DNA of 53,766 nt from Actinomycetota bacterium (lineage in GTDB: Bacteria; Actinomycetota; Acidimicrobiia; IMCC26256; VFJJ01). The stretch covers positions 1-53,766 of the forward strand of contig VFJJ01000077.1 in assembly GCA_009886115.1 (NCBI GenBank), written 5' to 3'. Position numbers and translations under genes: made by a program. The notes beneath the pieces are model-generated. The model was not told the DNA's origin. It worked only from the letters and a program-made list of their open reading frames with translations, and made no database searches. Below, piece by piece: positions 1 to 1,177 of this stretch (positions within the stretch are counted from its first letter, which is position 1; every line of letters begins with the position of its first letter).

Positions 1-18
1 ATCGTCGTTATGTCAAGT
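1..18 (+). other. Probable chromosomal dif (XerCD) recombination site, truncated by the window edge
   Basis: Bases 8-18 TTATGTCAAGT match the XerD-binding arm of actinobacterial dif as I recall it (M. tuberculosis-type ..GCCGATAA-N6-TTATGTCAAGT). They are preceded by a 6-bp candidate spacer TCGTCG (2-7) and an A at position 1 that could be the last base of the XerC arm. The rest of the XerC arm is outside the window. Confidence 0.6.
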
Positions 19-105
19 GGCTCGGCTTTATGTCAAGTGGCTCGGCTTCATGTCAAGTGGCTCGGCTTTATGTCAAGTGGCTCGGCTTTATGTCAAGTGG
101 CTCGG
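8..105 (+). repeat. Tandem array of five 20-bp units TTATGTCAAGTGGCTCGGCT
   Basis: Units start at 8, 28, 48, 68 and 88. Unit 3 has one T>C change (TCATGTCAAGT) and unit 5 matches for 18 bp. There are no unique spacers. Confidence 0.97.
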
Positions 106-166
106 GCTCGAAGGGGCTCCGCTGCGTCACGTTCCAGCTGGCGGCATCGCACACGAGGGTTGCGCT

Positions 167-811
167 GTGTCATCGTGGGGGCTCCCCCCGAGCGAGGGGG
201 CGCGAGACGAACGGTTCGAGGGGGTGGGGGCGCTGTTCCGACCGAGCTGGGATTCGGGCTGGAGTGGGCGGACGCGAGAGATCCGACGGTGGCAGGTCCT
301 GCTCGTCGCGCTCGCGATGTTCCTGGTGGGCATGCTCGTGGGCTCGTCGAAGGCCGGTGACGACGGCACCGGCGCGATCATCGTCGAAGCCGGCAACGGC
401 GGCACCACCGACGGTTCGACCCCCGACGCCGGATCGACGGCGAGCACGACGACGACCACGACGCCCGTCAGCAGCGCGACCCGTGCTGTGGGCGAGGTGA
501 AATTCCTGGTGCTCAACGGGGCCAAGATCCCCGGTGGGGCCCGTGACCTCACGAACGATCTCATCGGACGCGGCTATGCGCCGGAAGCGGCTGGTGACAC
601 CGAGCTGCACCCCCAGAACACCGTCTACTTCCACCCGACGTCCGAGCCCGACTGCAACGCCCTGGCGTCGATCGTCGCCGAGTTCACGGGCGCTCGCACC
701 GCGACCGTCCCGCTCTTCGACCCGGTGCAGATCCCGGCGGCCGCGGGCCTCGACTGCCTCGTCGTGCTCGGGCGCGATTTCGCGGTCACCGTCTCGGCAG
801 CCCCGGCCTGA
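167..811 (+). CDS. Membrane-anchored LytR C-terminal (LytR_C) domain protein
   Basis: One hydrophobic helix (VLLVALAMFLVGMLVG), a Thr/Ser-rich linker, then VLNGAKIPGGA...TVYF...LVVLGRDF, typical of LytR_C. Start moved to GTG 167 (GAGGG at 155-159) because the ORF-track N-terminus is translated tandem repeat. Confidence 0.75.
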   Translation: MSSWGLPPSEGARDERFEGVGALFRPSWDSGWSGRTREIRRWQVLLVALAMFLVGMLVGSSKAGDDGTGAIIVEAGNGGTTDGSTPDAGSTASTTTTTTPVSSATRAVGEVKFLVLNGAKIPGGARDLTNDLIGRGYAPEAAGDTELHPQNTVYFHPTSEPDCNALASIVAEFTGARTATVPLFDPVQIPAAAGLDCLVVLGRDFAVTVSAAPA

Positions 812-850: not shown

Positions 851-1076
851 GGGCTGACGACATCGTGCGGGAGAGTCCTCGAGTGGCGCTGGTACAGGTC
901 GGGCGGGGCGCCGAAGGAGCAACCTCCCCGGAATCTCTCAGGCCACCGAACCGCACGGAACAGGCACCTCTGGAGAGCAGCCGGCCCGTCATCGGGACCG
1001 TCTCACCGACGGGGAAAGCGTCATCGGGCAGCCGGCTCGGCGGCGTGAATCTCTCAGGTCAAGCGACAGAGTGGGG
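851..1076 (+). ncRNA. Tandem glycine riboswitch (two aptamers)
   Basis: Aptamer 1: CGTGCGG-GAGAG...CGCCGAAGGAGCAA...AATCTCTCAGG...CCGCACG (864-957). Aptamer 2: CTCTGGAGAG...CACCGACGG...AATCTCTCAGG...GACAGAG (968-1071). It lies directly upstream of gcvP, with a -10-like TAGCCT at 841. Confidence 0.93.
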
Positions 1077-1177
1077 AACGGCCCGCCGGGCGTCCGGCGG
1101 GTGAACGAGCGGCGCGCCACGAACCATTCCGTTCGTGGCGGCCATCCCGCCCTGCACGTCGATCGCCGAGGTGGCCC

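Follow-up and report, generated by a model that had tools for sequence, protein, structure and literature searches.

The chromosomal dif site is usually treated as a single, fixed site of 28 bp. The stretch of DNA analysed here (53,766 nucleotides, C77:1–53766, referred to simply as the window) begins with a dif-type site that is followed by a row of further XerD-type arms. What this row is, how it arose, and whether the cell has any use for it are the questions that the locus raises.

TRF returned a 20-bp tandem repeat at positions 8–105 of the window (4.9 copies, 97% matches, score 189, consensus TTATGTCAAGTGGCTCGGCT). The repeat unit consists of the XerD-type arm TTATGTCAAGT and the linker GGCTCGGCT. 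In copy 3 the arm is a TCATG variant (T>C at position 49), the context A-TCGTCG precedes copy 1 only, and the linker of the final unit has one additional G. An earlier note on this DNA, made from the window alone, had described five 20-bp units with a substitution in copy 3 and the A-TCGTCG context; both TRF and the sequence agreed with this description. The note had also called copies 2–5 XerD-arm-only, and on inspection of the sequence a XerC-like arm was indeed absent from these copies. When the 11-mer TTATGTCAAGT was searched for in the 5.45-Mb genome, nine matches were obtained, and all nine fell within the array (on contigs C77 and C191), while the reversed control gave none. It may be noted that tandem repeats per se are not rare in this genome. 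With limits of 10–70 for the period, no fewer than 3 copies and a match of 90% or more, 63 arrays were counted genome-wide, and the dif array ranked third among them. What goes beyond chance is the location of the array on the single dif, together with its recurrence elsewhere. The features are collected in Table 1.

Table 1. Features of the array and its surroundings, in window coordinates.
Feature	Position	Strand	Remarks
Last base of the 11-bp XerC-type arm GACGCCGAGAA	1..1	+	Other 10 bases on C191, reverse strand, ~107–117
Central region of the dif-type site, TCGTCG (6 bp)	2..7	+	Relatives have TCCnCG, TCGACG or the like in this position
Primary XerD-type arm TTATGTCAAGT, first of the array	8..18	+	Same sequence as the predicted F. 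alni arm and as the single sites found in relatives
Five XerD-type arms	8–18, 28–38, 48–58, 68–78, 88–98
Tandem array, five units (arm + 9–10 bp linker)	8..108	+	TRF; partner contig; Logan contigs of runs X1, X2 and X4
Array units	8–27, 28–47, 48–67 (arm TCATGTCAAGT), 68–87, 88–108 (linker GGCTCGGGCT at 99–108, one extra G)	+	
Polymorphic dinucleotide in the exit sequence	101..102	+	Window, CT; tail of C191 and run X2, TC; run X1, CC
Gene of a LytR_C-domain protein, flanking, pointing away from dif	233..811, start approximate	+	PF13399, 25.6 bits (cut-off 22.2)

Position 1 of the window is a contig end, which was not visible from the window alone. Contig C191 (21.6 kb) of the same genome was found to open with the reverse complement of the array. 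The reverse-complemented tail of C191 and the head of C77 overlapped by 107 nt with three mismatches: copy 3 differs by T/C, and in the exit sequence CT and TC are exchanged. C191 carries five arms as well, with copy 3 free of the substitution, and each of the two contigs runs through the five arms and continues for 7 or 9 nt into the flank on the other side. Where further contig ends of this assembly overlapped exactly, the overlap was mostly 109 nt long (120 cases). The break in the assembly graph is therefore attributed to a variant bubble about as long as one k-mer.

Logan contigs (k = 31) of four sequencing runs were aligned to positions 1–700 of the window; these provide depth ratios only, and not a direct copy count. 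In run X2, the TC variant of the C191 tail led without a break into the flank of C77, so that the two contigs are joined. The short contigs formed a repeat cycle of 20 k-mers in three of the four runs (X1, X2, and X4). In run X1 the depth of the repeat was 15.4 and 23.3, and in run X4 it was 37.4, against a flank depth of about 4–6 in both. In run X2, which belongs to a different study, pieces of the array had depths of 44.7, 40.3, 60, 19.5, and 7.3, compared to 14 for the flank. One piece from X2 had an extra G and hence a 21-nt unit, as in the last copy of the window, and the unit composition in X2 differs. The k-mer depths, which may include other organisms, suggest about 5–6 copies in X1 and perhaps 8–9 in X4. 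Variation in the copy number of the array is likely: the assembled alleles have five arms, and the number elsewhere may be higher.

Could the array be an assembly artefact, that is, a stutter or a collapsed graph loop at a contig end? The array does stand at the ends of two contigs, its length of ~100 nt is close to the 109-nt overlap of the assembler, and a genome of the same genus (G001) is also broken at the dif locus. However, both contigs cross all five arms into the other flank, the junctions between units occur at elevated depth in runs from another study, and comparable arrays are found in the interior of long contigs as well as in a Nocardia chromosome that is complete. We regard an assembly stutter as very unlikely and attach next to no weight to it. 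The concern of the earlier note that reads might support a single unit was answered by both contigs and by the Logan contigs, all of which support several units. In G001, both flanks of the locus lie at contig ends and the dif is unassembled; none of the four one-mismatch matches to the arm found elsewhere in that genome was dif-like. The break fits a hard-to-assemble repeat and proves nothing.

The upstream half of the site was recovered from C191, on which AGAATCGTCGTTATGTCAAGT is located at C191:90–110 on the minus strand. The full 28-bp site reads GACGCCGAGAA-TCGTCG-TTATGTCAAGT and is preceded by ...CCCCCA. We compared it with the predicted dif of Frankia alni, CACGCCGATAATGCACATTATGTCAAGT, which is printed in Kono et al. 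2011 (PMC3025954) along with the dif sites of E. coli and B. subtilis. The XerD arm was identical at 11 of 11 positions and the XerC arm at 9 of 11, the latter containing GCCGAGAA where GCCGATAA is expected. The pattern A.AA-N6-TTATGTCAAGT occurred once in this genome, a draft of 224 contigs that is 95.6% complete, and genomes of the same order had single sites of the form nnCGCCCATAA-TCCnCG-TTATGTCAAGT.

The genome was also examined for the proteins that act at dif. A XerD-like recombinase scored 340 bits with NF001399 (cut-off 279) and 320 bits with TIGR02225 (cut-off 329.6), and a XerC-like recombinase scored 271 bits with TIGR02224, under the equivalog cut-off of 335. An FtsK gamma domain (89 bits), SMC (TIGR02168, 824 bits), and Ku (167 bits) are encoded as well. 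On the C191 side GC skew was +0.009, and on the C77 side it was −0.014; over 96 contigs, the median absolute skew was 0.0126. This is a sign change of the terminus type with a typical magnitude, and it is local evidence in a draft of 224 contigs. The E. coli type KOPS motif GGGNAGGG showed no flip of polarity across the site; the best 7-mer, CGGGGGA, was distributed 13:1 to the left of the site and 6:16 to its right, which was not significant after multiple testing. The strand bias of ORFs around the site was weak. The site is located in a short intergenic region between two diverging genes, one for an MFS transporter (PF07690, 178.6 bits) on the C191 side, which is also directed away from dif, and one for the LytR_C protein. 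The latter marks the border of the intergenic region and is not a component of the array.

By homology and context, copy 1 of the array is a member of the dif family and the predicted dif of the chromosome: relatives have one such site each, the Xer, FtsK, and SMC genes are present, and the local skew changes sign at the site. This is what had been proposed from the window alone. Of the points on which that proposal turned, the XerC arm upstream was present on the adjoining contig, the attribution of TTATGTCAAGT to the XerD arm of actinobacterial dif was borne out by the full match to the predicted F. alni site, and between C191 and C77 the skew changed sign locally, as would be expected at a terminus.

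Similar arrays were looked for in other genomes. Among 401 genomes of the class, A.AA-N6-TTATGTCAAGT was present in 70 (this genome included), so that exact-arm patterns cover only part of the class. These 70 genomes had 74 sites; nearly all genomes had the pattern once, and in four it occurred on two contigs. The XerC arms of almost all 74 sites resembled nnCGCCCATAA or nnGCCGATAA. Additional arms, accepted with up to 2 mismatches within 250 bp of dif, were found downstream of it in 8 of the 70 genomes. Apart from the present array (20-bp period, five arms), these were 21 × 3, 26 × 3, 39 × 2, 53 × 2, 56 × 2, 57 × 2, and 65 × 2 (period × arms). Upstream, no additional arm was seen at any of the 74 sites. 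Thus, about one in nine of the sampled dif sites of the class carries tandem copies of its XerD half.

In a species-wide scan, each of 185,579 species was represented by a single genome and searched for pairs of exact arms 4–30 bp apart. It yielded 38 loci, seven of which were a recognizable dif with tandem units of arm plus flank. Five of the seven were in Acidimicrobiia MAGs (14 × 3, 41 × 2, 30/36 × 3, 19 × 4, and 26/27 × 3), one in a MAG labelled Acidobacteriota (39 × 2), and one in a complete Nocardia chromosome (24 × 2, at 4.70 of 9.15 Mb). The remaining 31 loci were mostly of low GC, and no XerC arm could be recognized in them by eye. Two genomes were common to both surveys and five arrays lay beyond the class sample, giving 13 distinct arrays in total. 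Their periods ranged from 14 to 65 bp, their linkers were unrelated, and the 12 other arrays had two to four arms. All additional arms had the same orientation and stood on the same side of dif.

Arrays were present in four of the six matching genomes of one genus, and no two of these had the same period and linker, a sign of separate events or of a fast turnover. It had been asked in the earlier note whether arm arrays occur in relatives with a variable linker and a constant 20-bp period. The arrays did recur and their linkers did vary, but the period was not kept, nor is a spacing of two helical turns conserved among the arrays. In a sample of the phylum, the array pattern was found in none of 400 other genomes; an exact-arm dif occurred in only 4 of 112 genomes of other classes, and therefore this result is uninformative on class specificity. 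As arrays break short-read assemblies, all array counts are lower bounds. A metagenome scan for two arms 3–33 bp apart gave at least 121 stretches, and no high-GC dif array was recognized among the 80 loci inspected. The metagenome matches listed were mostly contigs of ~40% GC with CCATAG-TTATGTCAAGT-ATTTT arrays, which are a different feature.

We then compared, for each array, the bases to the left of arm 1 with those to the left of the later arms. In 12 of the 13 arrays, the identity ended directly at the arm's first nucleotide. Base −1, which is G at the true dif, was T, A, or C in front of the secondary arms and never G. In the Nocardia array, the identity extended 7 nt further, up to the XerC-side border of the central region (± 1 nt). 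Array L230 was an exact 56-bp duplication in two copies, with zero shared bases at both junctions; L264 and L255 were full two-unit duplications that have diverged since. The number of phases that keep the arm whole equals the period minus 10, i.e., 4 to 55 per array, and 12 arrays share one and the same phase. The search patterns needed whole arms, so that starts inside the arm were detectable only by a TRF control. In this control, which was blind to the arm and covered 73 dif sites (43 kb), five repeats with a score of at least 100 were detected, and four of the five started at arm offset 0. The fifth was a 124-bp repeat upstream of one dif site, and no strong repeat directly adjoined any of the 73 sites on the XerC side.

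According to PMC4246890, XerD remains attached to the arm when it cleaves, and the central region is left with a 5'-OH. Taken together with this chemistry, the shared starting point of the units is the scissile position of XerD. The same source describes that integration of the TLC phage needs XerD catalysis even though its site is without a proper XerD arm. The earlier note had listed a by-product of aberrant Xer action among its options, and this gave the best fit to the exact boundary of the units.

We favour, with some reservation, an origin in which the XerD arm was first duplicated at the XerD cut site of dif and later amplified into a row of XerD-only half-sites. The founding duplication would have occurred where XerD cleaves, at the bond that joins the central region to the XerD arm. 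Two routes may be envisaged, for both of which we infer a part of XerD catalysis: an off-pathway strand transfer by XerD, in which the XerD-linked arm is passed to an end of the sister duplex that is not its cognate partner, or a break at the XerD nick that is rejoined without homology, conceivably with the help of the encoded Ku. The XerD arm with its 9–10 bp of outer flank would in this way have been tandemly duplicated, eventually to five copies, with later gain, loss, and variation of units by slippage or unequal sister exchange. The predicted outcome is one recombination-competent dif and four XerD-only half-sites.

The DNA beyond the arrays was compared by eye with the XerD arm. It matched at 7 of 11 positions in L058, at 7 of 11 with a 1-nt offset in L255, and at 2–4 of 11 in the present array, L230, L233, L043, and L264. 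An Xer exchange of the classical type, with a homology check against a secondary site, is not well supported and was not adopted: base −1 never matches the true spacer, and the exit sequence is arm-like only sometimes.

Could the arrays instead be products of ordinary slippage or unequal crossing-over in non-coding DNA, with the arm included by chance and with neither a Xer role nor a function? The genome does hold 63 short-period arrays of similar quality, amplification from two to five identical units is typical of slippage, and in L058 the flank after the array begins with TTATG, a 5-nt direct repeat able to prime slippage. But slippage alone would have had to hit the same nucleotide of dif in 12 of the 13 arrays, when 4–55 starts were possible in each. 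The clean two-copy case, L230, has no microhomology at its junctions. Four of the five strong repeats near the 73 dif sites stand at arm offset 0, and none adjoins a site on the XerC side. Moreover, with ~63 arrays of ~100 bp in 5.4 Mb, the chance of an array covering dif is estimated at ~0.1% per genome. A slippage-born minisatellite was rejected on the shared first base, the L230 junctions, and the TRF offsets, and we hold an origin by slippage without XerD to be improbable.

Another explanation would see the arrays as remnants of departed mobile elements that exploit Xer (IMEX), or as decoys against such elements. Integration at dif does leave a second dif-like site, as stated in PMC4246890. 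The direct repetition of Xer-type sites at or near dif is likewise shared with the IMEX arrays of Vibrio (CTX, VGJ, and TLC phages) and the pdif modules of Acinetobacter plasmids. In those systems, however, full or hybrid XerC/XerD sites are kilobases apart, whereas here half-sites alternate with 3–54 bp of duplicated local flank. The assignment as an IMEX array was rejected on these linkers and on the missing XerC-like arm of the secondary units. Furthermore, units of 14–65 bp cannot code for anything, the linker reproduces the local chromosomal flank and not foreign DNA, and the unit and its arm are absent elsewhere in the genome. A scan of viral contigs gave 17 loci, none of them a high-GC dif-like array. 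We consider remnants or decoys highly improbable; the decoy option of the earlier note found no support, as neither an element-like sequence nor a viral match was obtained.

A further question is whether the copies have been kept. Between adjacent units, 7 of 242 arm positions and 96 of 444 linker positions differed, a contrast that is inflated because the arrays were found through their arms and the last linker was taken at full unit length. In some arrays, linkers were 35–46% diverged, with none or one of the 11 arm positions differing; L045 and L050 had linker divergences of more than 40%, and arm differences of 0 and 1, respectively. For L230, L255, and L264, in which the similarity of the linkers is plain by itself, arms differed at 0 of 33 positions and linkers at 15 of 148, which is suggestive only. 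This comparison, biased as it is, suggests that the secondary arms may have been kept by selection rather than being a neutral scar.

A row of XerD molecules beside dif could then have been kept as useful. It might unload or stall Smc-ScpAB before dif, stop FtsK arriving from that side, or raise the local occupancy of XerD. Besides the arm-to-linker contrast, the uniform orientation and side of the additional arms and the encoded SMC and FtsK gamma domain speak for such a platform. By analogy with E. coli half-sites, the secondary arms are probably bound by XerD alone: Graham et al. 2010 (PMC2800217) report a KD of ~10 nM for XerD, compared to >100 nM for XerC, and stopping of FtsK that is ~5-fold better at the outer face of XerD. 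Since the secondary arms all have one orientation, anything approaching from that side would encounter their outer faces. An XDS array built artificially, moreover, is reported to block translocation of Smc-ScpAB (Karaboja et al. 2021, as cited in PMC11840125).

Several points weigh against this. Arrays occur in only 8 of the 70 sampled genomes, and within one genus they are not conserved between species: the four genomes with arrays all differ in period and linker, a pattern closer to turnover than to a device that is maintained. [quoted passage not shown] A selected platform therefore seems to us doubtful, but a good deal less so than slippage. A platform is compatible with an origin at the XerD cut, which would then be secondary. 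In its fullest form, the idea is that some Acidimicrobiia and at least one Nocardia have XerD-written, selected rows of XerD-only sites at dif that serve as a one-sided, outward-facing barrier, stopping FtsK or unloading Smc-ScpAB shortly ahead of the recombination site, a built-in, tunable counterpart of the dispersed XDS of Bacillus; we put this forward as tentative and rather unlikely. The cell may use the array, simply tolerate it, or be mildly harmed by it.

In B. subtilis, the XDS are separate dif-like sites spread over the terminus region, and are not known as tandem copies of a XerD arm. At these sites XerD unloads Smc-ScpAB (Karaboja et al. 2021, via citing papers including PMC11840125). 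The present array resembles them in having dif-like sites in a probable terminus region, in the predicted engagement of XerD without recombination, and in the presence of SMC. It differs in abutting dif, while the citing papers place the XDS in the terminus region and do not present them as adjoining dif, and in being sporadic among relatives (8 of 70). With the half-sites of Graham et al. 2010 (PMC2800217), the array shares XerD half-sites whose outer face is turned towards a translocase coming from the XerD side, the best FtsK-stopping orientation in vitro. Those were single engineered half-sites with E. coli proteins, and the accessible text of that paper does not describe a natural row.

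Compared with the chromosomal dif/XerC-XerD/FtsK system, the 11 + 6 + 11 layout, the one full site, the XerD arm identical to that of F. alni, and the Xer and FtsK-gamma genes are all in common. A described dif has one XerD arm, whereas here the arm and a short flank are repeated head to tail, five times in this genome and two to four times in the 12 others. The words 'tandem', 'duplicat', or 'multiple dif' do not occur in the main text of the dif survey (PMC3025954), and no description of tandem XerD arms at dif was found in the limited literature collection that was searched.

If XerD makes these duplications, the arrays are a natural record of off-pathway cleavage or strand transfer by XerD in living cells, an activity otherwise studied on engineered substrates and phage attachment sites. 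If XerD writes the rows at its own cleavage point, the enzyme would create its own accessory sites. Should the cell retain the copies for a purpose, these would be natural XerD-only arrays on which FtsK stopping and SMC unloading beside dif could be tested. There is also a practical consequence. Arrays break short-read assemblies at dif, as in this genome and in G001, and therefore tools that predict dif as a single site miss or misplace it.

The reverse strand of every repeat unit contains TTGACA. Reading the units as promoters was set aside, as the arrays in other genomes follow dif and not particular genes.

Strand polarity was examined over 75 kb around the dif site, on C77 joined at dif to the reverse complement of C191, an overlapping contig of the same genome. 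The heptamer CGGGGGA had a top:bottom strand ratio of 13:1 to the left of dif and of 6:16 to the right; this strand flip is of the kind that an FtsK-orienting motif should show, and was not significant after all 7-mers had been tested. In the same-genus relative G001, the assembly breaks off to either side of the homologous locus (at the end of contig C241 and the start of C124; L026 and L029), and dif itself is unassembled. The window-side contig of this genome begins TGTCGAGGAGCC..., which is possibly the tail of a variant arm.

Other irregularities at dif were observed in the class. Locus L014 (genome G027, contig C26) has a single-arm dif with a 124-bp tandem repeat (2.2 copies) just upstream of it. 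Within this repeat, between 258 and 65 bp upstream of the site, TTATGGGCG, which is the XerC-arm core in reverse complement, occurs four times. This is a dif add-on of a different kind from the XerD-arm array. Four class genomes carried a dif-type site on two contigs each: G065 (C11, C61), G271 (C64, C180), G207 (C123, C169), and G376 (C64, C99). Several of these sites were less than ~500 bp from a contig end, and their flanks were alike, not identical. Strain mixtures, or else insertions at dif, could account for the double sites.

Outside the phylum, two-copy duplications of the arm with its flank were found at four loci (L062, L046, L048, and L040). The duplicated copy at L062 takes in 7 nt upstream of the arm, like the copied unit of the Nocardia dif array. 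No XerC arm was recognisable at any of the four loci, and they were therefore left out of the dif-array count. In one Prevotella metagenome-assembled genome, many contig ends (L039, L052, L054, L056, L059, L060, L063, L071) have a repeated element in which two arms, spaced 17 bp apart, come after the palindrome-like TTATGTAAATGTTTACATAA. This may be the terminal part of a mobile element that bears Xer-type sites.

The matches listed for the scans also included arrays of CCATAG-TTATGTCAAGT-ATTTT, with 3–7 copies per contig at irregular spacings of 20–80 bp, on contigs of ~40% GC. The motif carries TTGACA on its reverse strand. Since a large viral contig holds one of them, the arrays may consist of phage promoters or operators; they have no relation to dif.

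Locations of the features described in the text
Feature	Location	Strand	Details
Two adjoining glycine riboswitch aptamers	window 858–1079	+	RF00504, 63.5 and 41.5 bits
Arm-plus-flank duplication, L062	3.35 of 4.15 Mb		complete alphaproteobacterial chromosome
CCATAG-TTATGTCAAGT-ATTTT arrays	L096, L109, L120, L121, L133, L134, L139, L148, L152–L154, L160		metagenome contigs, among the matches listed
CCATAG-TTATGTCAAGT-ATTTT array	L283		viral contig, 191 kb

Within the window, the aptamer pair is an ordinary tandem glycine riboswitch. Downstream of both aptamers, an ORF starts near position 1178; its product, judged by eye, looks like a glycine-cleavage P protein.
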